Virus record (IMG/VR): IMGVR_UViG_3300026549_000038
Span: 1 to 64,000 of that record
From: a virus
Taxonomy: Duplodnaviria > Caudoviricetes
DNA length: 64,000 bases
Direction: 5' to 3' (one strand)
Below are positions 1-29,666 of this stretch, in pieces. The notes below the pieces were generated by a model, which worked only from the letters and a program-made list of their open reading frames with translations, was not told where the DNA came from and searched no databases. Position 1 is the first letter of the stretch, and each line of letters opens with the position of its first letter. A program made the position numbers and the translations under genes.

Positions 1-619
1 CATTCCAATACTTATCTACAAGGTCCTTATCCGGGAACTCATAGAAAAGTCCGTTGCTGGTAAGTTCGAACTCGATGTCTTCTCCGCAGTTCTCACAAGC
101 ATCTGTAAACTTTACACGGCTTTCACCACGAGAGAATGTATATTCGCGGATCTTAAGGATGAACCAAAATCTATCCCAAGAGTTCAGCTGAGCCCAACCA
201 GCACCTTCGCTGCTGTGAGTGTCTATCCTTAGACAACTGCGAACGATGTCGTTGAAGACGTTATTTACCTGATCCGGGCGGTCTTCGTCGATAGCTGTCC
301 AGTTCTTGATTGCGTTTACGGTCGCAGGCTTAATAAAAAACTCCCACTCTTCCGGATAAAATTTGCTCCTCTCGCCCATCTCTTCTCGATCGACGGGAAT
401 CCATCCTTGAGAGATACTTGCCTGTTCCTCTGCATCAGCCAACTGATTACGACGATTCATGAACCTATTAAATGATTCCTGCTCTTCGTTGCTCAGATCG
501 CTCACATGCTCTTTACCACCGTAAGCTTCTTTATGCTTCAGTTTTTTCCCGATCAGAGATTCTTCTCCTCCCATGCCACCAATCTGCTGTTCTAAAATTT
601 CATCTTGACTTTTTGCCAT
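1..619 (-). CDS. Partial (runs off window start) T4 gp26/gp51-like baseplate hub assembly protein
   Basis: Not in ORF track. ATG at 619 gives MAKSQDENLEQQ...FFIKPATVNAIKNW...DRFWFILKIREYTF...DACENCGEDIEFEL. The 'D.F..L.IR..T' motif plus a CxxC knuckle resembles gp26-family proteins. Confidence 0.55.
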   Translation of the reverse strand, partial: MAKSQDEILEQQIGGMGGEESLIGKKLKHKEAYGGKEHVSDLSNEEQESFNRFMNRRNQLADAEEQASISQGWIPVDREEMGERSKFYPEEWEFFIKPATVNAIKNWTAIDEDRPDQVNNVFNDIVRSCLRIDTHSSEGAGWAQLNSWDRFWFILKIREYTFSRGESRVKFTDACENCGEDIEFELTSNGLFYEFPDKDLVDKYWN

Positions 620-689
620 ATAAATAAACGTTTATTTGCATATATCTATAATATATACAAAAATAGAACTTTTTTAGAAAACCGGCAAA

Positions 690-1358
690 TTAAAAAATCA
701 ATACTGAATTTGGAACCCCCAGGTTACTCATAACATCTGTTATGTTATTAATATATTGCTTGGTTCTTTTTTGAACCTTTGTTTTCCACGAACTATCCCC
801 ATGAAGTTTCTCGGGTTGAACGATGCAGTTATACCTATTATAGATTATATTAAATAATTTCATATTAAATAATTTGTTATAGCCTAAATTAGAATTTGTA
901 AAAAACAAACGAGGAATAAAATCAAATCTATATTTGTCGCTTTGCCTCATTGTTTTTTTAATTTCTTTCTTGATGTCTTCTTTTCTTATCGGTTTTAACT
1001 CAAATAACTTATCCCATGGCTGTTTATAACCGCCCATCGGGATATGTAATTCTTCACGTTTAATAGTTTCAATGTTATATTCTGACAGACTTAGAGAATA
1101 TTTTGGAAGATTGTTCAAGAACACTTCAAGTGCGATGTTGAGATATTGTTTTTGTATTTTTCTATCTATACCGATATTTCTAACCATACCTGTATTAAAT
1201 AATATTTTATACCACGCACAATAATAATCTAAGATTCCCTCTAAATCTTCAGGTATGTTCTTAATTGTTAGCATGTCGTTTACCTTCTGCGTAACAGACT
1301 GCTCATCACTCTTATCGCTAAAAATACTCTCTTTTATATATGTTTGAATATTAATCAT
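690..1358 (-). CDS. Leader-tagged family protein, type A (helical cargo); candidate virion internal protein
   Basis: N-term MINIQTYIKESIFS. Shares YYCxWxxILF, NLP, IPMxG, KLHGDxSWK with 1993..2757. Confidence 0.8.
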   Translation of the reverse strand: MINIQTYIKESIFSDKSDEQSVTQKVNDMLTIKNIPEDLEGILDYYCAWYKILFNTGMVRNIGIDRKIQKQYLNIALEVFLNNLPKYSLSLSEYNIETIKREELHIPMGGYKQPWDKLFELKPIRKEDIKKEIKKTMRQSDKYRFDFIPRLFFTNSNLGYNKLFNMKLFNIIYNRYNCIVQPEKLHGDSSWKTKVQKRTKQYINNITDVMSNLGVPNSVLIF

Positions 1359-1366
1359 TTATATTA

Positions 1367-1978
1367 TCATTTATTAAAATTTGTGATAAAGATATTTGCG
1401 TTTTTAGTTTTGAGATACTTTTTTACATCTTCAATTTGAATTTTTTTCACAGGTTTCCATCTTACATCTCCATTATCAATCCAAACGAACTTCTTACATT
1501 GTTTTGGTGCGCCATCCAAAGACTTCAAGTTATGATTAAATACACATTTGAACGCAGCAACGGACTCTGGACAACCGCGGAGACTAGTCAAGTGATCATT
1601 CCATTCGACAATAAGCACACCTTGAAAATCGCAATCATCAGTAAATAACCAATCCATGCTTTTTGCTTCGCATGCGTTAATTATCAGGACTCCTTGGAAC
1701 TTTGAAATCTTATAGTCGAGACTCTTCTTATATATTTTATAAAGTATTATACATGAACTGCGGCCATGTAATGGAAAGTCTTGTATGTCAGGGCCAATTA
1801 TCTCGTATCCTTTTGGACCAAGATGCATCTGGTATATATCGAAATTAGAATCTATACAACACTCCTTGAATTTCTTTATAGCTTCCTCCTCAATAACCGC
1901 CTCAGTCTTCTTGGCAATTGAATCATCATCTCGTCCAGCAAAGAGACTCTCGTCTATATACGTTTTAATGTCTTTCAT
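1367..1978 (-). CDS. Leader-tagged family protein, type B (LRR-like LTSLxGCP repeats)
   Basis: N-term MKDIKTYIDESLF; LGPKGYEI, YKISKF, LTSLRGCP...LKSLDGAP. Confidence 0.8.
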   Translation of the reverse strand: MKDIKTYIDESLFAGRDDDSIAKKTEAVIEEEAIKKFKECCIDSNFDIYQMHLGPKGYEIIGPDIQDFPLHGRSSCIILYKIYKKSLDYKISKFQGVLIINACEAKSMDWLFTDDCDFQGVLIVEWNDHLTSLRGCPESVAAFKCVFNHNLKSLDGAPKQCKKFVWIDNGDVRWKPVKKIQIEDVKKYLKTKNANIFITNFNK

Positions 1979-1992
1979 TTTTCTAAACTTTA

Positions 1993-2757
1993 TTAACAGA
2001 TATTGCTAATTCCTCTTTTTCTCGACTTTAATTCTTTGACAAACCAGTCCATCTGATCTGTCCCTTCAGCAGAAAGAATATTTAATATATTATCAAAATA
2101 TTGCCTACATTCTTTGCGAACGTTCATTTTCCACGAACGATCTCCGTGTAATTTATCTGCGCTTGGCCGCATCGCACAATTAGATAATCCCATAATTATC
2201 AGCAACAGAGATGACTGGTGACTAAAATCCAGCTTTGATCGGTCAAACATTAAACCACATATACATCTTAGTTCTGGTTGTTTCATAGAAAGAATAGATT
2301 GTATTATATACTCTATTATTTTATCTATGTCTGAACTCGATGGTTGTTGCCCTGGTGTAAAGAAATCTTCCCAGTGCTGTTCCCACCCTGTCATTGGAAT
2401 AGAATCCAACGTATATGATTCTTCGCTTATGGTGTGAATGCCCTTTGTGTCTATTTGTATAGACTGATTCGGAAGATTAAATTTGAATATTTCCAAAACA
2501 GTTTTTGGTATTTTTATTATTTCTTCCTTGTTTGCAACAAGAGACGAGTTTGTACTTTTTCTAGATATATAATTCAAAAAACTGATATTAATAGCAGAAA
2601 ATAATATACCAGCCCAAACACAATAATAATTTAAAAGTTCGCGTGTTGTTTTGGGTGGATTTTTGATTGCGAGCATGTCGTTTACGTTTTTCACTATGTC
2701 CTCAGCTGCATCTCCTCCAAAGATACTTTCATCTATATATGTTTTAATGTCTTTCAT
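1993..2757 (-). CDS. Leader-tagged family protein, type A
   Basis: N-term MKDIKTYIDESIFGG; body paralogous to 690..1358. Confidence 0.8.
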   Translation of the reverse strand: MKDIKTYIDESIFGGDAAEDIVKNVNDMLAIKNPPKTTRELLNYYCVWAGILFSAINISFLNYISRKSTNSSLVANKEEIIKIPKTVLEIFKFNLPNQSIQIDTKGIHTISEESYTLDSIPMTGWEQHWEDFFTPGQQPSSSDIDKIIEYIIQSILSMKQPELRCICGLMFDRSKLDFSHQSSLLLIIMGLSNCAMRPSADKLHGDRSWKMNVRKECRQYFDNILNILSAEGTDQMDWFVKELKSRKRGISNIC

Positions 2758-2770
2758 TTTTCTAATAAAT

Positions 2771-3382
2771 TTACGTTAACTCTATATGTGCGGTTTTAGA
2801 TTTAAGATACTTTCTTATGTTTTTTTCTGTCGGTTCCATGCCTTTTTTAGGTTTCTTTGCAGAGAAACCATTAACATATATACCATTGCTAGCCCAACGA
2901 AAAAATTTACATTCTCTTGGTGCACCTTCAATTGAAATTAAGCTTTTATTAAAAGAACAATCAAACTTGTTAACTTTCTTCGGACATCCTTCAAGACTAG
3001 TAAGATAACCAGACCATAATATCTGAAGACCGCCATCAAACTCACAATCAGGTGTGAACACAGCTGTGAGGTCAGTGCACTCAATTGAATCAAGACACAA
3101 TAACCCACCACAAAATTTAGAAATTTTATATTTGAGTCCTTTGTCTGGCAACTCAGTCAGCACACAAGATTGCGCGGTTACATAAGGTGAATTACCATTA
3201 TTCGTAATTTCATATCCTTTTGGTCCCAGATTAATATCGAAATATCTTGAAATGTACTTATAATCATATATATATTTACCTAATTCATCAATAACTTCCT
3301 GCTTTAGTGCATCCTCGGTATTTCTGATTATATCTCCGCCTCCAAAGATACTTTCGTCTATATATGTCTTAATGTCTTTCAT
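2771..3382 (-). CDS. Leader-tagged family protein, type B (LRR-like)
   Basis: MKDIKTYIDESIFGG; FTPDCEFDGGL...LTSLEGCPKKVNKFDCSFNKSLISIEGAP. Confidence 0.8.
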   Translation of the reverse strand: MKDIKTYIDESIFGGGDIIRNTEDALKQEVIDELGKYIYDYKYISRYFDINLGPKGYEITNNGNSPYVTAQSCVLTELPDKGLKYKISKFCGGLLCLDSIECTDLTAVFTPDCEFDGGLQILWSGYLTSLEGCPKKVNKFDCSFNKSLISIEGAPRECKFFRWASNGIYVNGFSAKKPKKGMEPTEKNIRKYLKSKTAHIELT

Positions 3383-3401
3383 ATAAAAATTAACTATTTT
3401 A

Positions 3402-3986
3402 TTAATATAGGTCGATTGCAGTATATTTGGATTTAAGATATCTCCTTATATTTTCTTCTGTCGGAATCATATCATATTTCGGCATCTTCTTATTATTCGC
3501 CCCGTTATCTCCCCAAATAAATATTTTACATTCTCTTGGTGCGCCTTCAATGGAATTTAAATTCTGATTTATACTACATTCAAAATTATTAACTTTCTTT
3601 GGGCATCCTTCAAGACTAGTAAGATAATTGCACCAACTTATTGAGAGATTGCCGTTAAACTCACAATCAGGAGTAAATATTTTGGTAAGATCTGAACCTC
3701 CTAGCGACACGAGATTTAGCCTTTTTCCAGTAAATTTAGAAATTTTATATTTAAGTCCCTCTGCTGGTATGCCGGAGATATTTAAAATATATGGGTTTGT
3801 ACAGTTAATCTCGTATCCATCAGCACCTAATTCTATTCTCATCCAGGATTTTATTGATTTTGATGGAAATGCATATTGGAGCAATTCATCAATGGCTTCT
3901 TGTTGAAGTGTATCCTCGGTAGATTTGACTACGTCTTTGCTTCCGCCGAAAATACTTTCATCTATATATGTCTTAATATCTTTCAT
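3402..3986 (-). CDS. Leader-tagged family protein, type B (LRR-like)
   Basis: Start moved to the ATG at 3986 to match paralogs; LTSLEGCPKKVNNFECS...SIEGAP. Confidence 0.8.
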   Translation of the reverse strand: MKDIKTYIDESIFGGSKDVVKSTEDTLQQEAIDELLQYAFPSKSIKSWMRIELGADGYEINCTNPYILNISGIPAEGLKYKISKFTGKRLNLVSLGGSDLTKIFTPDCEFNGNLSISWCNYLTSLEGCPKKVNNFECSINQNLNSIEGAPRECKIFIWGDNGANNKKMPKYDMIPTEENIRRYLKSKYTAIDLY

Positions 3987-3990
3987 CAAT

Positions 3991-4305
3991 TTATTCCGTT
4001 TTTTCTTCTTCGTTTTGTCTTTCTACAAGTGTGCCGTCGTCATTGAATTTTTCACTGGATGAAGTGCTGACTTTACCTCCTTTCCAGATGCTTGTAATAG
4101 AATACAATCCTAATAGCGAAGCACCCACGATCATGCTAGTTTGAAGCAGATCTTGCACAACAGGAGTCGCTCCTTCTTTGACTGTAAGATATACTATACA
4201 AATCATAGACACCACACAAATAAACGCACCGATAAGACGTTTTGCGCTGCCTACACCTTTCTCGCTAAAGGCTTCTCTCATCCAAGATCTGACTGCTTTA
4301 CTCAT
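3991..4305 (-). CDS. Two-TM membrane protein, holin candidate
   Basis: 104 aa, two hydrophobic helices after a SAKR motif, highly charged C-terminus. Confidence 0.5.
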   Translation of the reverse strand: MSKAVRSWMREAFSEKGVGSAKRLIGAFICVVSMICIVYLTVKEGATPVVQDLLQTSMIVGASLLGLYSITSIWKGGKVSTSSSEKFNDDGTLVERQNEEEKTE

Positions 4306-4320
4306 AATATATAAATAATA

Positions 4321-4349
4321 AAAAAGAGAGCCTGCATATACAAGCTCTC
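4321..4349 (-). terminator. Intrinsic terminator
   Basis: GAGAGC-12nt-GCTCTC stem followed by a T-run on the minus strand. Confidence 0.5.
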
Positions 4350-4376
4350 AATACATTCATTTTATGCGTTTACTTT

Positions 4377-4592
4377 TTACTTATCCTTCCACTTATCCCA
4401 CAAAAGCTTGATCACACCAATTCCAAACGCGGCGGTAAATACAAAATTAAACCATTCAAAAAATCTAGAAACATTTGCATGTTCCGGCAGGATGTTATGA
4501 TTTGCCGTGAAAATCAAATCAACTGCGACAAAAGCCAAGATAACAATAAATATCACAAAAGCTTTGGCACTGTTTTTTCCTATGATCCCCAT
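4377..4592 (-). CDS. Small two-TM membrane protein
   Basis: 71 aa with two hydrophobic segments. Confidence 0.6.
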   Translation of the reverse strand: MGIIGKNSAKAFVIFIVILAFVAVDLIFTANHNILPEHANVSRFFEWFNFVFTAAFGIGVIKLLWDKWKDK

Positions 4593-4617
4593 ATTTATAA
4601 AGATTTATTTGGTTGTT

Positions 4618-4989
4618 TTAGTTTGTTTTAGTTTCTTCTGCGTGCTCTCCAAAGAGCTCTTCAAAGATAGCATACATTCCAATTGTATAATTTGGAATAG
4701 ACGGTGCAATAGCTTCGAGCTCATGGTCGGACATCTTTACAAACTCGTCTTTAACATCCTCATTCAGGAGTGCTTCTACAGCCTTTGCAAAGAGATTGTC
4801 CTGATCGTCCTTGCCCGTGTTATCCTTCATAACCTTATCCCTGGAACTCTCGAACTCCTTTACGATTCCGAGAACCTTGATTCCGTTCTTCAACATCTTG
4901 TCTCTTGCAATTGGGTCTTCGATCTTGTTCAACTGACAAGTTGAAAGAACCTGATATAGATTGATTGCGTCGTTTACTGTAAACTTCAT
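4618..4989 (-). CDS. Hypothetical helical protein (possible tail-fibre chaperone)
   Basis: Intact ORF directly downstream of the fibre cluster, with its own promoter-like motif at 5014-5042. Confidence 0.6.
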   Translation of the reverse strand: MKFTVNDAINLYQVLSTCQLNKIEDPIARDKMLKNGIKVLGIVKEFESSRDKVMKDNTGKDDQDNLFAKAVEALLNEDVKDEFVKMSDHELEAIAPSIPNYTIGMYAIFEELFGEHAEETKTN

Positions 4990-5045
4990 ATCCTTCTACG
5001 TGTTATTTGTTATAATATATGTAATGTTGTTTGTTTCTTTAGTTT

Positions 5046-7115
5046 TTATTTAGGTTCATTTTCACCTCCACCACCATTCTTCCTTGCTTCTTCTGCGAGG
5101 TTCCATCCATCGATGAACGGATATCCTGCCCAAGTTGTTGTTGGTGTAGGATAGATCTTATCTGGGTCAGTACGACCACCATCCCAGTTACCTGTGTCAA
5201 TGATAGACAGTTCGGCGTAAAGGTTGATGTCGGCACCCGCACTATTAAGACCGCCGTAGTATATTTCACCAGTGATAATCGGGAGCTGACCTCCTCCTGG
5301 AGTACCAGATACAACCGGGATGGTGACTGTATTTGTTGTATTTCCAAGACTTATTGATGTGGAGACAACAGTAGAGTTCTCATTGAGATATATTTTAGTA
5401 CCGCTGTAATTGTCTGCATAATAGTAAAATTTACAACGCACTGGAACTGAGACGGTTCCCGTACCAGTAACTGTCACTACGGGGAATATATTGTAAATGA
5501 ACTTCTCGTTTATTTGGTCAAGGGTTGCAGATGATACATATCCATCACCTTCACCAACTTCAAGAGTAATCGCATCCAGCTGTGCTGTTGGAGTGGGAGT
5601 TCCACCTCCACCACCACCGCCACCACCACCGCTTCCATAAGTGCTTGCTTTCCACATATAAGGATGTCCTGTACTGTCAATATATACAATTGGTTGTACT
5701 CTTGCGTCACTTTCTCGTGCTCTTGGAATATACAACCATATTCCTTCACTAACGCTTTCTTGACCCATATCCCTAGGATAGACAGTCGGGATTCTTGAGT
5801 ACATACCTGCTGGCAGGATACCCAATGCCGGGTCGGAACCTTCCGATGCTGGCACACCGTGGATTTGAATATCTCCTAAAATCAATTGTGTACCAGCTCT
5901 CACACCATATGCACCCGGTGTTCCAGCATTAGACCATTGATATGGTACACCACCCATCAAGTTATATATTGTAGGATAATTATATTCGTGATGTCCCTCT
6001 GGAGGATTGCTCGGTAATGTATCATTATCATGCGAAGCGGCACGATAGTATCCGTGCTGCACCCAAGGACTTGCCGGGTCACCAAGGCCAGTATACCATC
6101 CATCCAAGATAATGTCGTAAGGAATACCACTGTTTGGGTCTTTTGAAAGGTTGGCATCTGAGTGAACCGTACTGGCATCATTCGGGTCGTCAAGCCTATA
6201 TATTCTAAATGATTCTGGCTCTTCCATAACTGTGTATGGACCTGAGAATGCGGTCTCATAATCCCCTTCTGGATTCTTTGCTATTAACTTCATTTCGAAG
6301 GTGGTGTGATTGTTTCCTTGTGCATCGAAATCTGGCCATCCTTGTCCGCTGTCTGCCAACGGGATAGTAGCGATAAATGGATTGTCCTCTGAAGCATATA
6401 CATCATACTTTGCATTAGTCTCTATATTGGGTATGTCGAATGTCCTCGTTGCAACTGATGGAGTACCTCCCGTGTATGTGGTCAAGATATGTACCTGTAC
6501 TTGAATCTTATAAGTTGGACAATAGTAGGCGTTACGATAATTCATTCTAAATGTGAGACGACGGCGAGATGCTGTGATAACCACATTACCTTGATGTCCC
6601 TCTATGTCAGGGTCGTAATTGCTGAATTTAGCCCAGGTCCTAGTGTTCAATCCGCCATCATTACAAAGCACATAACTTCTTATATATGTTGTATTTCCTA
6701 TAGTTTCCCGGCAAGTATGACGAGGCTTTCCATTTCTAGAGTTTGTCATATTATGGAGGTTCCAATTGTCAGTATAAGTTGCGGAACCGTTTTGTGTATC
6801 TAACAACCAGCCACACAAACAATACATTGTTGTTGCAGAACCACCAGATGGTGTATATATATAGTTATAATGGGTTACTTTATCCAAGTGAAATGTATTA
6901 AGAAACCAAATATCAGTATATGTAGTTTTTTGTACTGTAGTAAGGCTTGCATACGTAGGAACAGTAGGTGGAGTCGTACTATAGTCTGTATTTGCTTCTA
7001 TAGCATATTGTTGGAGTGCTCTAGGAAGCTGAATCAAAATACCTTTATTATCTTGTTCTCCTGTATCATATTTATACCATATTTTTGGTGAATATACTGA
7101 ACCTGGTGCTGCCAT
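5046..7115 (-). CDS. Virion/tail-associated protein, paralog of 7205..9127
   Basis: Beta-rich T/G/Y composition, poly-Gly linker; shares MAAPxSVYS, NDGGLNT and NxEG blocks with its neighbour. Confidence 0.65.
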   Translation of the reverse strand: MAAPGSVYSPKIWYKYDTGEQDNKGILIQLPRALQQYAIEANTDYSTTPPTVPTYASLTTVQKTTYTDIWFLNTFHLDKVTHYNYIYTPSGGSATTMYCLCGWLLDTQNGSATYTDNWNLHNMTNSRNGKPRHTCRETIGNTTYIRSYVLCNDGGLNTRTWAKFSNYDPDIEGHQGNVVITASRRRLTFRMNYRNAYYCPTYKIQVQVHILTTYTGGTPSVATRTFDIPNIETNAKYDVYASEDNPFIATIPLADSGQGWPDFDAQGNNHTTFEMKLIAKNPEGDYETAFSGPYTVMEEPESFRIYRLDDPNDASTVHSDANLSKDPNSGIPYDIILDGWYTGLGDPASPWVQHGYYRAASHDNDTLPSNPPEGHHEYNYPTIYNLMGGVPYQWSNAGTPGAYGVRAGTQLILGDIQIHGVPASEGSDPALGILPAGMYSRIPTVYPRDMGQESVSEGIWLYIPRARESDARVQPIVYIDSTGHPYMWKASTYGSGGGGGGGGGGTPTPTAQLDAITLEVGEGDGYVSSATLDQINEKFIYNIFPVVTVTGTGTVSVPVRCKFYYYADNYSGTKIYLNENSTVVSTSISLGNTTNTVTIPVVSGTPGGGQLPIITGEIYYGGLNSAGADINLYAELSIIDTGNWDGGRTDPDKIYPTPTTTWAGYPFIDGWNLAEEARKNGGGGENEPK

Positions 7116-7204
7116 AATAGTGCTTAATTTTAATTATCTTTTCTTTTACAAATAATAACTCAACTCCACATATTTTTCTTAAATTCGTGCGGGTTTTGTG
7201 CTGT

Positions 7205-9127
7205 TTATATGTTATCATCTGGTATATTACGAAGTACTATACTTCCTTCTGTGACTGCATTTGCTGCAGGAGTACCAGTTGAACCAATTGACCACAAGTC
7301 ATCTTCTCCACTATATGTGAATGAACCTACTGTAAAGTTTGCTGTGTTTCCACTACCTGTCACATTCCGAACAAATACTGGAGTACGAGCGATTGTATAC
7401 ACAGGAACAGTGACACTGATTGACCCGGACCATGTTCCTGATAGAGATGCATTGACTGTGATGGTGTATGTATCAGTCAATACATGATGTATTCCAGAAA
7501 ATGATATAGCAAGGTTGTAACTTGTAGTCGAATAGTTACTTGCAAACCAAGCAAGTCTACGAGTGCTGGTGTTGTTATTTGCACCATTTGCTATCTGCAC
7601 ATACCTAAACGTGCTCCCTCCCCAGGTTGTGGGAACACCATAGTAGTACCCTTGAGCAAGATTACCCATCACAGCCGATTCCTGACTTCCTGGGTCACCC
7701 GACATACCTCTAAGCCACTCGCCACCAGTTTCCAAGCCTAAATCGAGCCAGTCTCCTGAGTCCAATGCAAAAAGTCTTGTAAATGTGCCATTCGCTCCAT
7801 ATCGTGACTGGTCTATAGCCATCAGATAATGAGCGCCAGATGTTGGGTTGGTAGTTGTCCAGTTCGGCTGGCTGGCAAAACGATATACTTGAGTAAAGTT
7901 CACTGGATCAAGAGCAGTAAAGTCAGTTGTAGTTGCATTCTCAAATGTACCTTCGGAGTTTATCGCGGATAGTTTTACACGCACTGTGTCTCCTGCAGAG
8001 ATACCGGTACTTGGTTTTATAAATGTAGCGACACCATTCTGAGCAAACTGTGCAGGATATTCAACTTGTCCCTCAGTTGGCATGAAGTATGCCCCATCAA
8101 CATAATTTTCCTGTTGTCCACGGACCTTATAAACATCAGCATGAAACATATTTCCATCCACGTAGTACGCACCTGTCAGGTTTGCTTTAACCTGGATGTA
8201 GTTTGCGTACTGCATAGGAATATGGGTGTTGACCGCGCTCGAATTTCTCTGGATGTGTGGTGTGGTGTTTAGGCCTCCGTCATTAAGGATGATGTATGGG
8301 TTTCTTTGATACATCGTATAGAGTTTTCCGTGTCGAGCCACTCCGTGATGTTTATAGTTTTCAGTATAGACTCCATTTGTCTGGTCAGCGCGTACGAGTC
8401 CTAGTACACAGTAATGTCCTGCGTCGTCCATGACAGGCATCACATGGTCACAGTAGAACTTACTCTTAAATGTGTTGTCGTTTGTGTATGATGAAAGTTG
8501 GAGTGGAAGACGACAGTATATCTGTGTGTTCGTTGGATTTGTTGTAACCACTTCTTTATATGGATAGTACTCATTTGAATATCGTTCATCCATGTCAGCT
8601 TTAGTCGGTTCATTTCCAGCACCATACATAGCTGTCAGGTCAGCCATCCAAACATTTTTGACTTGTATCTTTGCTCCTACAGGAAACTTATCTGTTGATG
8701 CAACACCCATAGCACCAACATAGACACGCGTCTTCGCTGCAGAACCTGTATCTATTATACCAGACACATGCGTCCAGTTAGCATAGTTGTTTGATTGCTG
8801 AGCTGTTGTCAGGTATGTTGTTGGACTGTATATGAACAGTGGGAGGAATGGGACATTGGTTGACGATGTGATTTTGAGCCATAGACTTGCATAAACCTTA
8901 TGACCAGCGGCAATGGACGTAAACGTACGAGTAACCATAGGATTACGTACTGCAGTATTCACAGTCATAGTACATACACCATCACTATCTATGGAATATG
9001 GGGCATTGGGCGTATAGTTTGTCCAACCCGATGTCGCATCGAAATTTCCATGATTGATTACTTGATTAAAACAACCAAATCTATCTTCCCAGGTTGTTGC
9101 TGAATATACACTGAGTGGTGCTGCCAT
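7205..9127 (-). CDS. Tail-associated protein with N-terminal carbohydrate-binding-like (CBM4/9-like) insert
   Basis: NHGNFDATSGW...WTHVSG...DLTAMYGAGNEPT jelly-roll-like block, followed by the core shared with 5046..7115. Confidence 0.65.
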   Translation of the reverse strand: MAAPLSVYSATTWEDRFGCFNQVINHGNFDATSGWTNYTPNAPYSIDSDGVCTMTVNTAVRNPMVTRTFTSIAAGHKVYASLWLKITSSTNVPFLPLFIYSPTTYLTTAQQSNNYANWTHVSGIIDTGSAAKTRVYVGAMGVASTDKFPVGAKIQVKNVWMADLTAMYGAGNEPTKADMDERYSNEYYPYKEVVTTNPTNTQIYCRLPLQLSSYTNDNTFKSKFYCDHVMPVMDDAGHYCVLGLVRADQTNGVYTENYKHHGVARHGKLYTMYQRNPYIILNDGGLNTTPHIQRNSSAVNTHIPMQYANYIQVKANLTGAYYVDGNMFHADVYKVRGQQENYVDGAYFMPTEGQVEYPAQFAQNGVATFIKPSTGISAGDTVRVKLSAINSEGTFENATTTDFTALDPVNFTQVYRFASQPNWTTTNPTSGAHYLMAIDQSRYGANGTFTRLFALDSGDWLDLGLETGGEWLRGMSGDPGSQESAVMGNLAQGYYYGVPTTWGGSTFRYVQIANGANNNTSTRRLAWFASNYSTTSYNLAISFSGIHHVLTDTYTITVNASLSGTWSGSISVTVPVYTIARTPVFVRNVTGSGNTANFTVGSFTYSGEDDLWSIGSTGTPAANAVTEGSIVLRNIPDDNI

Positions 9128-9145
9128 AATATACTAATGTATCAA

Positions 9146-10522
9146 TTATTCACTATAACTTCCACTTGGATTCACATAAAGGTAATAGTTTCCAGATACT
9201 GCGCTGACCGGTGCAGTCTTTGGTATAACAAGATTCCTTGTAACAGTCAGGTCTCGCGCAGTCACGAGTCCAGAAGCCACGCTGAGGTTGTTCGAGCAGG
9301 TGACAGCACCGGTTAGGGTCGATGTGCTTGTGACTGAGAGAGTTCCCGCAGCACTGAGGTTCTTCGCTGCCCAGTTTTTCGTGTTGCGATTGGAGTTACC
9401 CCCATGCCAAATTTCATAACTGTCTGACTCTTGTGCATTGGTTGCAAAGTTGTCCGTATATTTCAAGCTTGATATTCCCTGGGGGTCAGTCAATATCAAA
9501 AGACCCGGGCCGCCATAATCCCCGTTGATCGAAAATGCTGGAACCGTAAAAAATGTATAGAAACTATTACCTATTTTTTGAAATCCTATTTGTCCATAAT
9601 TCACCGACTGACCACTCTCCAATCTCTTCAGATAAATATCGTCAAAAGTAGATATTTTAGAATTGGCTGTCACTGCACCGGTTAGGGTGCTTGTTCCTGC
9701 TACATTAAGATTCGCAGTAGCCCAGTTGACCGTACTAAGATTTGAGTTTCCGGCATGATAAATAACATTTCCTCGTGCATATAATTTATCATTTTGAATA
9801 GCGAAATCAGCACCTGCTATTGTATCTGCATTATTGCTTGCGGAAAACGTCATTGCATCATAATTTAAATCATGGTACCAAATACCAAATTTTGTATAAG
9901 ATGAACCATATGCGAGAATTGGGGCAGCCATACCTGAACGTCCAAAGTAGATTGTACTATTCGAGCCACCGAGTGTGATGTTATTGTTAAATGTTGCTGC
10001 TCCGGTAAATGTTGACGTTTTGCCAACACTGAGTGTACCCGCAGCACTGAGATTCAATGCACTCCAAGATACTGTGGCGAGATTGGAGTTATTTGAATGA
10101 TAAAACTCATAGGTGTTCTTGTACTTAAACTTTCCGTCAGAAGCGATGTTTACATACGGATAACCAGATACCGCCAGGTTTTGTAAATACGCTCCAATAT
10201 TAGAGGCGTTATGCCAACCGACAGCCGCCTTAATTGTACCACTAACTTTGAAATCTACTGTTGATTTTTGCTCAGTATTAGTAGAGTTCAAAATTAGTGG
10301 ATTGATAGCATTGCTTGTTATCGTGCCTCCAGTAAGCGGAAGATAGCTGCCCAAAGCACTTGACAAAGCATAGGTGTTGTTATCCACACTACCATCGGCT
10401 TTGAGGAATTGACTGGCTGTGCCACCAGTCTTTATAAATGCATTCGCTGTTATGTTTGTACCAAAGGAATCAGAGAGCCATCTCGATGAACCAAGTACTG
10501 TAAGGTCTTTTAATATTGCCAT
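9146..10522 (-). CDS. Tail fibre protein
   Basis: GGTASQFLKADGSVD, YLPLTGGT, three (Y/W)HxxNSN...W.A.NL repeats, LVIPKTAP C-terminal motif. Confidence 0.75.
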   Translation of the reverse strand: MAILKDLTVLGSSRWLSDSFGTNITANAFIKTGGTASQFLKADGSVDNNTYALSSALGSYLPLTGGTITSNAINPLILNSTNTEQKSTVDFKVSGTIKAAVGWHNASNIGAYLQNLAVSGYPYVNIASDGKFKYKNTYEFYHSNNSNLATVSWSALNLSAAGTLSVGKTSTFTGAATFNNNITLGGSNSTIYFGRSGMAAPILAYGSSYTKFGIWYHDLNYDAMTFSASNNADTIAGADFAIQNDKLYARGNVIYHAGNSNLSTVNWATANLNVAGTSTLTGAVTANSKISTFDDIYLKRLESGQSVNYGQIGFQKIGNSFYTFFTVPAFSINGDYGGPGLLILTDPQGISSLKYTDNFATNAQESDSYEIWHGGNSNRNTKNWAAKNLSAAGTLSVTSTSTLTGAVTCSNNLSVASGLVTARDLTVTRNLVIPKTAPVSAVSGNYYLYVNPSGSYSE

Positions 10523-10539
10523 AGTTTAATAATAATAGT

Positions 10540-12999
10540 TTACACTTCTAAAATTTGTTTGCCGGCTATCGACTTTTCATAAAACTTCACATTATCTGCA
10601 AGCGTCCCTTTCAGCATTGCATCTGGAATTCTTATGTATAAGTCTAAGTATCCTGTCGTCACTACTCCAGCCACACCTGGGATTCCTCCTTGATATGCAG
10701 TATAACTTCCACAAGCAACCCACCAGGCGGAACCGTTATGCATAGCTGCCATTGAGCCATTGTTTCTCAATTTACAGTCTCTCGCAGGACTTCCGGAGAT
10801 GACTGTATATCCTGTAACTGAGGAAGTTAGAGCTGGATTCGATGTCTGTTTCCAGCGATACTGACTTTCCGTTGCATCGCTTGTCAGTTTCTCACAAATG
10901 ATGAACTCAAACTCACTCAGGCTCGTAATCCATGCTGCGTTCTTTAATAATACGAGCCCAGAATAGAGATTTGTCGAATTATTGCACCAACAGTTCGCAG
11001 TTGTGAACAGATTTGATGCTGGATTGTTATGATGTAGTATTCGAAGGAACGCTGCTCCATCACTAGCAATCATTATATTAGAACTATCCGTTTCGATATA
11101 GTTGTTTATTTTTATGAGTCCTGTTTGGAATATTTGTTGCTTGCCTGGTGACTCTTCGACGAACTCGTATCCATGCATACTTCCAAGATTATCTATACTC
11201 GCTGCGGTGTCATAGAGTTCTCGAATGTCCGTAGCGGAAAGCACCGTCGTATAAAAACGATAGTCCGAATAACCAGCATTATTCACCCCTCGCTTTACTC
11301 CCCCCGCACACGAATAATTTAGTGCTATGTAATTGATAGTTGGAAGTGTTCCGGTTGCTGCGACAGTCTGAACGGATGTTCCGTCTTTGTACATAATCAG
11401 ATTTGTGCCGTCGTAGGTGATAGCATAATGATGCCAAGTACCGTCTATAGTCCAATTAGACGTTTTTAGTGATTTGTTACTACCACCAATCGTACATCGT
11501 ATAGAAGCATCGTAATCGTGGATGAGAGTTGTTGTATAATCTGTAAAAGCTGTATTTGCCGACGTGCATACTACTCCTCCTGAATATCGAGAAGAACCCT
11601 TGAACCAAAATGCCACTGTAAATACTGTTGGGGTTAGAGTCAGTGGACAATAAATATAATTATATGTAGCACCACTAACGCTGTAACCAGGACAGGTTAT
11701 ATTTATTGTCTGGTCATATCGTGGAGACCCGAAAGCAGCTATAAGTGAACCATTTATGGTACCATGATGTCCATACCCAGAACAATCACACACCGATGCA
11801 GAAGCTACTGTCACAGGCCCTGCTGCGAATGCAGTAGAACTGGCTGAAGTATAAAAGGTTCCAGTAACAATGTCATACATTCCAGCAACCGAATCTGAAT
11901 TACGCTGAGCAGGAATAAACATTCGGACACACTGTCCATCTCGTTGAATATCAACGTAATAAATGCGACCTTTGAACGGGTAACCTGCTCCACCATAAGA
12001 AAACATTGAGAGATTGGTTGCAGTTTGTGTATATGTATTAGATAAAGACCCCTTATCCACCCCGTCCATATACAGGTGTTTACTCTTATAGACTGCAGTG
12101 TGTTTGTTTGTATCGTTACTTGCACCGAGTATATTCTGCTGCCCTGAACCGTTATCAGCACATACTCGTATAGAACTTCCATTGTAATAATAGTACAACC
12201 ACCAGTACGGTTTAGTACCAGTTGATGCCAGTATCATACCATTGTTTGTGGTATCATTTCCTTTGAATACAACAGTACACGAATCAACTTCGGGATTGAA
12301 TTTGACTCCAGTGCCAAAATACGAAGCACCGGATGCTTCAATATATTCCAATTCTTTATACCCCGCTGGCAGTCTGGTATTATACTGTCCATTTAATGGT
12401 AGGTGGAGTACGAGGCCTTGTGCAATCTCATGTACTTCTTTTGCACTCAGGCAATGGTCGTAGATGCGGACGTCGTTGATATCTCCATTGAAATGACTAT
12501 TAACGGCAGATGAATTGTTAACATCATTTCCAATACGCGCTGCATTTTTATAAGTAGTTGTTGCTGCAGCAGTTCCTACATTTGAATATACTTCAAGACC
12601 GTCTATATAACATGAATTTTTTAATGTTGTGTGGCTATGTGTGTAGCAGAGATGGTGCCATTTTCCATCAATAACTTTACTACCAAGACTTGTAAAATTA
12701 TTGTATGGTACATAAATCATATTTGACCAAAATCGATAAGAATATGTAATTGATAACCAACACCCATTTTCAGTTGTTTTTAACCATGCGCATACAGAAA
12801 AATCATGTTCTTTTACAATATCCACTAACTCGGTAATCCCACTAAGATTTATTCGTTGTAATAATGTTTTATCAAAACTATAACAACTACCAATCTTTCC
12901 AGCAGAGTTCACTGTAGCGCCAGAGTTAGTAGCAGTTATGTTACATAATCCTTTATTCTCTAAATTTCCAGTCAGTGGAAGCCATACTTGTAGTGCCAT
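10540..12999 (-). CDS. LamG/concanavalin A-like domain tail protein (receptor-binding candidate)
   Basis: Two LamG-like domains (DGKWHHLCYT...YIDG...INDVRIYDHCLS; GTWHHYAITYDG...YKDG...SDYRFYTTVLS) flanking an LPAGYKELEYIE domain. Confidence 0.8.
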   Translation of the reverse strand: MALQVWLPLTGNLENKGLCNITATNSGATVNSAGKIGSCYSFDKTLLQRINLSGITELVDIVKEHDFSVCAWLKTTENGCWLSITYSYRFWSNMIYVPYNNFTSLGSKVIDGKWHHLCYTHSHTTLKNSCYIDGLEVYSNVGTAAATTTYKNAARIGNDVNNSSAVNSHFNGDINDVRIYDHCLSAKEVHEIAQGLVLHLPLNGQYNTRLPAGYKELEYIEASGASYFGTGVKFNPEVDSCTVVFKGNDTTNNGMILASTGTKPYWWLYYYYNGSSIRVCADNGSGQQNILGASNDTNKHTAVYKSKHLYMDGVDKGSLSNTYTQTATNLSMFSYGGAGYPFKGRIYYVDIQRDGQCVRMFIPAQRNSDSVAGMYDIVTGTFYTSASSTAFAAGPVTVASASVCDCSGYGHHGTINGSLIAAFGSPRYDQTINITCPGYSVSGATYNYIYCPLTLTPTVFTVAFWFKGSSRYSGGVVCTSANTAFTDYTTTLIHDYDASIRCTIGGSNKSLKTSNWTIDGTWHHYAITYDGTNLIMYKDGTSVQTVAATGTLPTINYIALNYSCAGGVKRGVNNAGYSDYRFYTTVLSATDIRELYDTAASIDNLGSMHGYEFVEESPGKQQIFQTGLIKINNYIETDSSNIMIASDGAAFLRILHHNNPASNLFTTANCWCNNSTNLYSGLVLLKNAAWITSLSEFEFIICEKLTSDATESQYRWKQTSNPALTSSVTGYTVISGSPARDCKLRNNGSMAAMHNGSAWWVACGSYTAYQGGIPGVAGVVTTGYLDLYIRIPDAMLKGTLADNVKFYEKSIAGKQILEV

Positions 13000-13017: not shown

Positions 13018-16000
13018 TTAGTCGAAAATAAAATTAAGACATTTATTTGTAGCATCGTACTGCTGATGACACTGAGAAGTTGTTGCACTTCCTATATAGA
13101 GATTGTTAGCACTCAAGCGGAGGTCTCCTGTCATCGTATCCCCGCTCTTTTGAACATATCCACTCAATGAAGCAGATGTAAGATATGTATTTGAATCCAC
13201 ACTACCATCTGCTTTCAGGAACTGAGATGATGTGCCGCCAGACTTGACAATTGATGAGCCTGTTATTGAGCCTGTTACTTTTAAGTTACCTGTCTTTGAT
13301 GACAGCTCCATCTGAATTGCAGGCGTAGCATTAGCTGTATTGCTGCTCGATTCCCAAATCCAACCATATCCACTTGAGTTTTCAATAAGAGACCTACGAG
13401 CCCAAGATGTAACATATGTTCCAGTTGGAGGAGTTGCTCCAGTAGGACAACCACCAGCTGTTACATTTGACATATATTCGTACCAAGTATAGTAGTTATT
13501 CTTATAAAATCCAACGCGTCCATATACAGTTCCTGCTTCGCGATTAAGATTGAGTTTAGCAAGTGTTAACATACCTGAACTTGGATTAAATTTAAGAATA
13601 TCGCCAGTATATACAGACTCGGCAGTTGCTGATGAGTTACTACTATCTACGAATGTCGGATAAAAATCTGCATTGGTGGATGTCTTAACAGTCTTTACTG
13701 AGTTGGCACTTGCTACGTTTCCTGATGATGTTACATATGTATTCGTATCAAAACTCCATGTGCCACCTGATGCTCTTTTGAGGAATCCACTTGGCGTGCC
13801 TGTCGCGGCAAGTGTCTGAATCTTAACCAGTTCTGTGGTTCCACTAAGCTGACTCAAGACAGATGGTATCGTGAGAGGCACTGAGACAGCAGAGCTACCA
13901 TTATAACTATATGATGTTGTACCACTTCCCGTGCTGACGGAGATCGTTAAGGTCTCTCCGCCTCCACCACCGCTGCCTTGAGAGCTTCCGTATTCTCCTG
14001 TACCGAGCCAGAACGAAGCATTCGTCGTAGAGCTTGTGTCGCTCGGGTCATGCATCGGTACGTTGAGTATCTTCGGGAATGTAGCTTCTCCATTGAAATA
14101 AGATGTTCCCACGTGGTGTAGTCCATATGTAGGAGTTGTAGTTCCTATACCGACTTTTCCATCAGGAAGGATACACATTCGTTCTACAGGTCTATCCGAA
14201 TTGGTTGTACCACTCTTCGTTGCGAAAACTAAAGCAGAGAGTTCACTTCCTGTAGTACTTGTGCATCTTACACCAATCCAGGCTTGAACAGCAGCGTTGT
14301 ATGTTGTACTATTATTATGGTCATAAAGGCCATGAAATGCAAGACCAGGATAATAACTACCAACTCCAGCTCTTGTTGGCATAGGAGCAATGACCACTGC
14401 GTCCAATGCCGATGAGATAGTAGATGCACCTGTACTATTTCCTTTAAGGACTGTCTTATATCCATGTACCATTGTTCCGTCTGGATATAACCCAATCTTA
14501 CCCAAACTATTATATCCACCATAACCGATATATGCATAGTCGTGATTTTGACCTGTTCCTTTAATACCAATCTCAAATGTGTGGTTTCCTGCGGAAGCTT
14601 CTAAAACGTCTCTTGCCCAGGATGTGGTACCGGATGGAGTCGATGGAGCCCAGGTAAAATGACTTCCGTAATTACTCTCTATGACAACACTGTTCTGGGT
14701 TCTTACGTCATTTGTATCGGGCATGTAAAACCCTGCGATTGGAACCGTTTGATTTGCTGCAGCTGGGATGTCTGCAGCGGCAATAGCTTCTATTGTGGTT
14801 GTCGTGAAGTCAAAGTTTTGTGCTGTGTCTCTTGCTATAAGTTCATGAATGGCTAATACGTTGTATGTCAAGCTAGAAACATAAATATAGAATATGCCAG
14901 GATTTGCAAGATCGTACTTGATAGTTGGTAACCCGGTACCCGGCCCGGTCACAAATCCACGAACATCTGCAGCAGTCCAGACATTGGAACTATTTTTTAA
15001 GAAGTAATAGTTTAAGTGTATATCTCCGGTGAGTCTGATCGGATCTCCGTATGTGCTTCCTACTCTGAGTCTCATAGAGATCATCAACCACGCATTGCCG
15101 GAAGATGTGTATCCGTTGAATGGGAGGGTTACCTTATACCAGGCAGAACCATGAGCTTTTTTAATATAAGGGTAATATGTTATATCTTCTTTTTTCGGAA
15201 CATAATCAGTGAGTTTCGCTCCCGAACTCTTGAGAACTCCTGTAGTATTATTCCACGTAGCAATCTCATCGGCAACGAGAGTTCCGGTATATGTAACGTT
15301 GTTTGTAATCGTGTGTGTATGAGTGCCTGTGGCTGTGATGTGTCCAGCCGCGTCATAAGTCACATAAGGAACAGCAAGAGAGTTTCCACTTGTAGCACTA
15401 GATGTACCTACGGTTCCTGCAGTCACACCACTCAGCAAGTGACCTACATAAAAAATGTCTGTCCCACTCCCCCCGTTGCTTCCTCCTACTGCAATCCATT
15501 TGTTTGATGGTGTGATAGTAAGAATTTCATGAGAAGATGTTGATTCTAATTTAGTTGTATTTGATGTGGGGGCTGTAACTGCACTTGATGCTGCACCGGG
15601 AGCTATCTGTCCATAGTTATAGGCATGTGCTGTAAGATATGTGTTACTATCCAGGCTACCGTCTGCCTTTAAGAACTGAGAAGAAGTACCTCCTGTAACA
15701 ATATATTTCGGAGCGGTAAGGTTATGGTAGAGAGTCTGTGCTATTGACTTATTGAACACTGCCATCTGATCCAAAGTGCCACGACTCTGGAAGAAAGAAA
15801 TCTGGGTAATCCATGTAGGGTTTTCTTGCTTTGCTGTTATAGTAATTTCTATTTGGGTCACACCATAAATATTGCCATTAAAACCGCGATACAGAGCTGT
15901 ATCATTAAGTTTGGAAACATTGGTCATTTGGATATCATGCCATCCTGTCCGACTGCCGTAATCTGAATAAACTCTCACAGAAACAGACTCTGGAATGTTT

Positions 16001-29027: not shown

Positions 29028-29666
29028 ATGATACCTTTATGTAAGTATATAGGAGAATCCGTGTTTGATGGTAAGTCTGAAGAAGATATAGTGCAGAATG
29101 TCAATAAATTGGGTAAGATTACAAGATACTGCTACTCTAAAAATAAAAACATCTTCGATGGAGTCACGGGCAGTGTTCGACTGGGGTCAAATGGTATAGA
29201 AATTTACGCGCCGTGGTTTGGTGCTTCCGGAGCGCAGGAATTTATGATAGAATCCACGGCTAAAAAATTAGATCTCGGAATATCAAAGTTTCGAGGGAAT
29301 CTACGTATTCAATGTAAGAATCTCCAGACACTAGAAGGTATATTTACTCCAGATTGTGAATTTATGGGTAGGTTGTATATGTGTTGTCCAAATCTCAAAT
29401 CGCTTAAAGGCCTTCCAAAAGCAATTATGAAGGACCCGGAACTCAGGCCGGGATATCAAAATGGATTTCTTGGATTAAATGATGCTCTCATAGAACCAAC
29501 ACCAGAACAAATAGAGTATCTTCCAAAGGAAATGAATGAGTTGTCCTGGGACTGGGATGGTGATATTCCAAATAAGACAAAACGAACGTTAATCCGAGGT
29601 CAAATCATAAAGCATACAAACGGTCTTGAAGCAATAAACATCCAAGGACATTATAAAAGAGTATAA
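29028..29666 (+). CDS. Leader-tagged family protein, type B (orphan copy)
   Basis: Start moved to the ATG at 29028: MIPLCKYIGESVFDG; ISKFRGNL, IFTPDCEF, LKSLKGLP. Confidence 0.75.
   Translation: MIPLCKYIGESVFDGKSEEDIVQNVNKLGKITRYCYSKNKNIFDGVTGSVRLGSNGIEIYAPWFGASGAQEFMIESTAKKLDLGISKFRGNLRIQCKNLQTLEGIFTPDCEFMGRLYMCCPNLKSLKGLPKAIMKDPELRPGYQNGFLGLNDALIEPTPEQIEYLPKEMNELSWDWDGDIPNKTKRTLIRGQIIKHTNGLEAINIQGHYKRV

Follow-up and report, generated by a model that had tools for sequence, protein, structure and literature searches.

The window analyzed here comprises the first 64 kb of IMGVR_UViG_3300026549_000038, a 160,192-bp linear IMG/VR virus contig with a CheckV completeness of 81%. Five tandem minus-strand genes close to its start (690-3986) encode proteins that share an N-terminal leader and then continue into one of two unrelated bodies, here called A and B. 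On sequence evidence and by analogy with phage T4, there is a somewhat better than even chance that this array and its leader are a further instance of the T4 internal-protein system, and that the leader is the capsid-targeting sequence (CTS) of this lineage. We favor this reading because the constrained positions of the leader coincide with the targeting and cleavage positions of the T4 tag, and because the genome encodes a T4-type protease and capsid protein. By its leaders, the array forms one group within a set of at least 18 candidate tagged genes in this genome, and the five predicted proteins are probably virion cargo.

In T4, the CTS is found on IPII and IPIII, and also on IPI and Alt, and is removed by gp21 (Mullaney and Black, 1996; reviewed in PMC9026906, PMC3012670, and PMC8442874). 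For head loading, the first 10 residues of IPIII are enough. Targeting depends on residues 4 and 7 of the CTS and processing on residues 8 and 10, and gp21 cuts after L-x-E or I-x-E (PMC9026906). The internal proteins in T-even phages form a diverse set with the CTS alone in common (PMC3012670). We read the T4 comparison sequences from NC_000866. There, IPII and IPIII begin MKTYQEFIAE/A (the slash marks the cut), gp24 begins MAKINELLRE/S, gp22 begins MLKEQLIAE/A, and gp21 begins MNEPQLLIE/T; the tag letters on which the original prediction for this locus had leaned, MKTYQEFIAE, are thus correct for IPII and IPIII. The likeness that it had drawn between the leader and this tag also holds, in that the two are equal in length and geometry: residues 8-10 are I-x-E, and residue 11 is small. 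Those features of a T4 CTS that can be read from predicted proteins are all present in this phage: the site [ILV]-x-E-[SGT] in 18 of 18 leaders, the S77 and gp23 protein families, and portability of the tag.

The leader in the array and across the genome

The original prediction described five tandem genes with nearly identical starts in the order B-B-A-B-A, and the ORFs and N-termini are as it stated. Transcription would run through B3-B2-A2-B1-A1, in that order. Four genes begin MKDIKTYIDES(I/L)F, and A1 begins MINIQTYIKESIF. Residues 8-11 read I-(D/K)-E-S in all five, and the strict site [ILV]xE[SGA] has a single occurrence per array protein, at residues 8-10 (5/5 proteins). The similarity of these predicted leaders is far beyond chance. 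Nearly identical 5′ DNA had been claimed for four of the genes, and over the first 13 codons of the four MKDIKTYIDE genes the DNA is indeed 90-95% identical, with differences that are nearly all synonymous. The DNA upstream of the leader-bearing starts shows no conservation. The bodies diverge after a shared N-terminal module of about 28 residues, which agrees with the split after about 30 residues that had been proposed.

On two points the original prediction was too narrow. The ten-residue tag is shared as described, but the module it belongs to is about 28 residues long, and the roughly 18 residues past the putative cut are also common to the array proteins. Likewise, the leader is present in the five array genes but is not restricted to them. 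A scan of 3286 open start positions with a position-specific scoring matrix (PSSM) found it on 18 genes of the genome. These 18 score at least 19.8 and the next candidate scores 9.4, a gap with some circularity in it, since these same 18 sequences went into the PSSM. By body, nine of the 18 belong to the B family and three to the A family, and there are several singletons; at least five body types beyond A and B carry the tag in this genome. Proteins of 84 aa and 116 aa and an RNA-ligase-like protein of 402 aa, the last of these one of the singletons, also carry the leader, and their genes are dispersed over the genome.

Five positions of the leader keep to one residue class in every tagged gene (18/18 at each): position 4 is I or L, position 7 is Y, F, or H, position 8 is I, L, or V, position 10 is E, and position 11 is S, G, or T. 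The codons behind them vary. Ser11 is written by AGT and AGC as well as by TCT, TCA, and TCC, position 4 uses five codons (ATT and ATA for I; TTA, CTG, and CTT for L), and position 8 uses four. Because the fixed residues use varied codons, the conserved thing is the peptide and, judging from this codon usage, selection acts on the leader at the protein level. In both families, moreover, no block is better conserved than the leader (0.65 vs. 0.40 in B, 0.59 vs. 0.27 in A). In AlphaFold2 (AF2) models of B2 and A2 it appears as a detached short helix of low confidence; in B2 the helix spans residues 4-11, and the predicted local distance difference test score (pLDDT) of the leader region is 52-57.

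Some single genes with the leader, or with a start like it, were seen elsewhere in the genome. The 402-aa protein (137319-138527, plus strand) has the leader MKTLSQYIIEG and a KxDG motif. It scores 19.7 bits against Pfam RNA_ligase, below the cut-off, and has no NCBIfam match. This protein is possibly an RNA repair enzyme loaded into the capsid. A 418-aa protein (139930-141186, plus strand), encoded directly upstream of the protease, starts MKNLNEHIIQ, with Gln replacing Glu10; a hydrophobic segment and EPEKKE repeats come after this leader-like start. Further leader-like starts without Glu10 are located at 138535 (MKSLFDYLNN) and 126528 (MENIKDYLNK). Since Asp10 in the T4 tag blocks cleavage, not targeting, proteins of this kind could by analogy be core proteins that are targeted yet uncut.

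Two unrelated bodies behind one leader

The A and B bodies are non-homologous, as had been proposed. In BLASTP of residues 29 to the end, A bodies match A bodies and B bodies match B bodies, and no match between A and B was found at E ≤ 0.01. When the two families are compared profile to profile, the N-terminal stretch alone aligns (62 columns, probability 97%, E 5e-11), and the confident alignment is confined to approximately the first 30 residues. The AF2 folds differ as well, B2 being modeled as a beta-solenoid behind a long helix and A2 as all-helical. With bodies that are unrelated and folds that differ, the leader is portable in the sense originally claimed.

The B body appears to be a leucine-rich repeat (LRR)-like binder, as judged from its model. 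Nearly all of the top 50 VIA-align matches of B2 are LRR proteins (Z 7.5-6.1, 107-147 aligned residues), although a Z of 7.5 is middling and too low to exclude an arrangement that is simply common. Foldseek of B2 against the PDB gave no match at E ≤ 1e-3, and its top rows were LRR or L-domain proteins; the Pfam LRR models did not match B1-B3. The B sequences have a repeat of 22 residues (L..L.G.P..V..F.C..N), and B2 matches P0018, a pure-repeat protein of 323 aa, with an E-value of 3e-12 across 38% of B2. P0018 itself scores 20.5 bits against Pfam LRR_4, under the 27-bit cut-off. The middling structural Z fits the 22-residue repeat and the match to P0018.

Homologues of both families are few, and nearly all of them carry the leader. 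The B family has 17 among 5.8 billion clusters, of which 16 carry it, the exception being the repeat-only P0018. For the A family, 15 representatives were found in 1.84 billion proteins, with the leader at the start of every one among the matches listed. Distant homologues retain the leader peptide though their bodies fall below 25% identity, and orthologues of 85-91% identity are present on ENA and Logan contigs. Fold searches with A2 gave nothing in BFVD or the ESM Atlas and a best Z of 4.8 in the PDB by VIA-align, and scans of metagenome contigs with A2 and with P0014 returned nothing. We did not find a family for any of the five array proteins in PHROGs or Pfam, nor a match among 50,697 phage records by blastn (distant mode) of window positions 1-8000 or by tblastn of B2. 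The array proteins are about 21-28 kDa, with isoelectric points that are near-neutral or mildly basic.

Prohead protease, scaffold, and capsid protein

The original prediction depended on an IxE-specific prohead protease, and the genome encodes a protease of the gp21 type. It matches the S77 family (PF03420) at 38.5 bits, where the cut-off is 27, and BLASTP aligns it to T4 gp21 with 27% identity over 112 residues, a stretch that spans GEL(E/N)HP and (I/V)SSR. The N-terminus of the protease reads MSNKTFIFE/T, and 13 of 13 relatives keep a comparable hydrophobic-x-E-T. A gp23-family capsid protein is encoded as well (PF07068, 83.7 bits). Sites like that of the leader are found in the capsid and scaffold proteins, where the original prediction had suggested looking for them. 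The propeptide of the major capsid protein has a motif, KW..[IL]xE, that is common to T4, this phage, PTm1, and PAU, and the scaffold-like tail to which the protease is fused contains 24 [ILV]xE sites, where shuffled sequences give 9.3. The fusion protein is 480 aa long, with the protease domain at about residues 1-190. Neither T4 gp23 nor gp21 was reached when PDB sequences were searched by phmmer with the capsid protein and the protease.

If the leader works as the CTS does in T4, it would fold into a short amphipathic helix at the N-terminus and bind the scaffolding core during prohead assembly, and this binding would carry whatever follows the tag into the head. The scaffold-fused S77 protease would then cut after Glu10, at I-x-E/S. 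The mature protein, which would start at Ser11, would remain in the capsid with the DNA and would probably be ejected into the host at infection. We infer the core binding, cleavage, packaging, and ejection, and likewise a role of the cargo in binding proteins, perhaps host defense factors. The injection and anti-defense role that the original prediction proposed are conjecture.

Relatives and phage PAU

We found 13 IMG/VR relatives via the protease-scaffold protein, to which they are 32-63% identical. In most of them tagged genes lie within 10 kb of the protease, and across the clade the tag co-occurs with the protease-scaffold. Extending the scan for the leader to relatives, as had been suggested, gave 9-24 tagged genes in each: five whole records picked by protease similarity have 11, 9, 13, 24, and 18 tagged starts. 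The reversed pattern gave 0 matches in every record, compared with 75 forward matches in the five relatives, and this count is a check independent of the PSSM.

The bodies behind the tag change between these phages. Type A is absent from all five relatives examined, and in the closest large relative five genes match the B profile solely at its N-terminal 41-70 positions. The array had been called a diversifying set, and that part of the original prediction is supported only indirectly, in that relatives differ in their cargo families but keep the leader. Other IMG/VR fragments have tagged genes with different bodies, one of them with three in tandem. On IMGVR_UViG_3300026549_000143, three tandem genes at 8260-11030 start MKDLKPYIDESLFSG, MKALKPYIDESLFS, and MEDLKLYVDESLFSG, and their bodies were not matched to A or B; this is a second tandem array of tagged genes, in another phage fragment. 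A strict DNA pattern of the leader is found on two further IMG/VR contigs and no more. No protease was found on four IMG/VR fragments, which are 4-25% complete, an incompleteness that makes this absence uninformative.

The isolated Sphingomonas phage PAU (JQ362498) is a relative by its capsid protein, which shares 36% identity with that of this phage; its actual host is a Sphingobacterium (PMC3738902). In PAU, 18 genes start MK[TS][LI]xxL[YF]E (reversed control 0). This tag ends L-x-E and, in the genes translated, is followed by A, S, or D. Most of the PAU tagged genes are located at 100-113 kb, beside the portal, protease, scaffold, and capsid genes, and the set includes gp152, annotated as scaffolding, and gp142 and gp154, each annotated as internal capsid protein. 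We found no published proteomic basis for the internal-capsid annotations of PAU. In PTm1 there was no match to the leader pattern, and no obvious leader family was seen in the head region.

Layout of the array and its surroundings

The features of the window that bear on the array are listed in Table 1. Neighboring array genes are spaced 8-19 nt apart. The five genes most likely arose via duplication of a B-A pair, followed by one further B duplication. B3 starts with the ATG at 3986; a TTG one codon upstream (3989) is a less likely start. Because a baseplate-hub-like gene follows directly downstream, we place the array in a block of virion-structural genes.

Table 1. Array genes and associated features of the window (aa, amino acids).
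Feature	Coordinates	Strand	Description
B3	3402..3986	-	Leader MKDIKTYIDESIF with LRR-like body, 194 aa; 55% identity to B2 body; in alignment A4
B2	2771..3382	-	Leader with LRR-like beta-solenoid body (model), 203 aa; AF2 pLDDT 86.4
A2	1993..2757	-	Leader with all-helical orphan body (model), 254 aa; AF2 pLDDT 76
B1	1367..1978	-	Leader MKDIKTYIDESLF with LRR-like body, 203 aa; 39-41% identity to B2 and B3 bodies
A1	690..1358	-	Variant leader MINIQTYIKESIF with helical body, 222 aa; 32% identity to A2 body (E 1.5e-24); alignment A3
Leader-bearing B-type gene outside the array	29028..29666	+	MIPLCKYIGESVF, 212 aa; PSSM score 24.7; BLASTP to B bodies E 1e-7 to 1e-9
Gene for a hydrophobic 104-aa protein	3991..4305	-	4 nt from B3; heads the likely transcription unit holding the array
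Baseplate-hub-like gene	2..619	-	Directly downstream of the array, truncated by the contig end; Pfam T4_baseplate 25.6 bits (cut-off 24.5); PHROG baseplate hub, weak
Terminator-like hairpin	4349-4326	-	Precedes the 3991..4305 gene; 10 pairs, then a T run

The strong hairpin separates two genes for small hydrophobic proteins, 4377-4592 and 3991-4305. It is followed by a TTATTAT-like motif, and the same motif is located upstream of the capsid and protease genes. As a possible late-promoter-like motif, TTATTAT is enriched merely 2.6-fold upstream of tagged and head genes in this AT-rich genome, and we did not rely on it. The B-type gene outside the array, the sixth in the window to bear the leader, has its ATG 2 nt past the stop of the gene upstream, and the longer ORF from 28941 probably does not mark the true start. 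Further along, a 689-aa protein (5046-7115, minus strand) with a run of eleven glycines followed by TPTPT has no family match. It probably belongs to a fibre/baseplate block that extends to a 2690-aa ORF at 13018-21090.

Alternative explanations

Several observations weigh against a T4-type tag. Loose [ILV]xE sites are not depleted in the tagged bodies (54 observed vs. 53.8 expected) and thus give no sign that these evolved under exposure to the protease, a result that neither supports nor excludes cleavage. Conservation continues for about 18 residues past the proposed cut (SIFGG..DIVKN.ED.L), and a 10-residue CTS does not explain these extra residues. The 18 tagged genes make up approximately a tenth of the ORFs, far above the handful in T4. 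Finally, the array lies in a tail/baseplate gene block and not in the head block. The last point, together with the conservation past residue 10, would suit a module of about 28 residues that is never cleaved and acts as a docking segment, fixing interchangeable binders outside the virion on the baseplate or on tail or head fibres, for receptor binding or decoration. The array is located between large tail-fibre-like or virion structural genes and the baseplate-hub-like gene, the B body is an LRR-like binder, and PAU and PTm1 have unusual tail or head fibres according to a review (PMC7824862). We nonetheless consider such docking unlikely. The leader is also on the 84-aa, 116-aa, and RNA-ligase-like proteins scattered over the genome, its PAU equivalent is on the scaffold and the annotated internal capsid proteins, and it is modeled as flexible, not as a docking domain. 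The match to the T4 targeting and cleavage positions would, moreover, be a coincidence.

It is slightly easier to imagine, but still rather improbable, that the leader plays no part in packaging and is a tag for some other shared partner in the infected cell, e.g., a chaperone, a modifying enzyme, or the phage protease in the role of a timer. One tag on many unrelated proteins has the look of a system with one enzyme and many substrates, and protease sites are not avoided in the bodies. However, there is no other candidate partner that accompanies the tagged genes, and the tag keeps company with the protease-scaffold clade-wide and clusters in the head module of PAU. A version in which the partner is a radical-SAM modifying enzyme was rejected: the sole radical-SAM gene of the genome, which neighbors a QueD-like gene, is itself QueE-like and lies about 40 kb away from the closest tagged gene. 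The adjacent QueE-like and QueD-like genes, at approximately 69.5-70.9 kb of the genome (minus strand), suggest by their sequences 7-deazaguanine modification of the phage DNA. Very improbable, in our view, is an origin of the similarity at the level of nucleic acid, either as a translation-initiation or regulatory RNA element or as a patch of microhomology kept by gene conversion for recombination between paralogues. The nearly identical 5′ ends of four of the five genes and a tandem layout that favors gene conversion speak for it. The varied codons behind the conserved residues across the 18 genes, the lack of conservation in the upstream DNA, and the distant homologues that keep the peptide on bodies of less than 25% identity speak against it.

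Significance

Beyond this array, a T4-type tag would fit a wider picture, which we put forward tentatively and give somewhat less than an even chance. A clade of large T4-related phages of Bacteroidota-type hosts, which includes this gut-type phage, relatives of 130-240 kb from IMG/VR, and PAU, whose version of the tag is its own, may use an ancient head-loading tag homologous to that of T4 to pack 9-24 proteins per genome, LRR-like binders and an RNA-ligase-like enzyme among them. These would make up a large, fast-evolving arsenal delivered with the DNA, with a logic like that of the effector sets of secretion systems, and the array would be its locally duplicating part.

If the tag works as in T4, it would be a marker, readable from sequence, of proteins delivered into the cell with the phage DNA, and it would serve for a large group of gut and environmental phages that cannot yet be grown. 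Some ten percent of a genome that otherwise lacks annotation would become a short list of candidate effectors of the first minute of infection, which could be anti-defense, host-takeover, or RNA-repair proteins. The LRR-like binders would be a new class of cargo, and the capsid-targeting mechanism of T4 would be old and widespread and no specialty of the T-even phages. The leader would also be a natural tag with which foreign proteins could be loaded into Bacteroidota phages. The idea is testable now because the relative PAU is culturable.

Comparison with known systems

The closest parallel is the T4 CTS itself. Both tags run for ten residues from an initial MK; positions 4 and 7 are hydrophobic or aromatic, position 8 is aliphatic, position 10 is Glu, and position 11, just after the tag, is small. 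Both are carried by unrelated proteins, and each phage has genes for a gp21-family protease and for a capsid protein of the gp23 family. As among the T-even phages, the set of cargo proteins differs between relatives while the tag is retained. The differences are also considerable. The leader is identical to MKTYQEFIAE at 4 of 10 residues, and its residues at position 4 (I or L) and position 7 (Y, F, or H) differ from Tyr4 and Phe7 of T4. There are 18 tagged genes here, and 9-24 in the relatives, compared with a handful in T4, and here the sharing goes on for about 18 residues past the putative cut. In this phage the protease and the scaffold form one fused protein. Its cargo, known here from sequence alone, is LRR-like or orphan helical and is without similarity to IPI-III. 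In T4 itself, gp61.1 (NC_000866, 18966-19130, minus strand), a hypothetical 54-aa protein encoded in the primase region, starts MKTFKEFIKE, which closely resembles the start of IPI (MKTFKEF) and the CTS of IPII and IPIII.

PAU resembles this phage in having its own N-terminal tag on 18 genes, ending in L-x-E. That tag is nine residues long and of another sequence, its genes cluster mostly in the head module, and the cargo families are different. In the giant phages phiKZ, 201phi2-1, and SPN3US, a gp21-related protease cuts many different proteins of the head interior after x-x-E (PMC5694885). There too, diverged paralogues keep identical N-termini (SPN3US gp53 and gp54), and the propeptides are thought to function in targeting. 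The motifs of the giant phages are, however, A-x-E or S-x-E, the propeptides are mostly longer than 100 residues, and no ten-residue tag is common across families. As to the bodies, B is modeled as a short right-handed solenoid, like the LRR domains of LANP/ANP32, Roco proteins, IpaH/SspH1, XopL, and the internalins. It differs from these in having about three repeats plus caps, in falling short of the Pfam LRR models, and in a best Z of 7.5.

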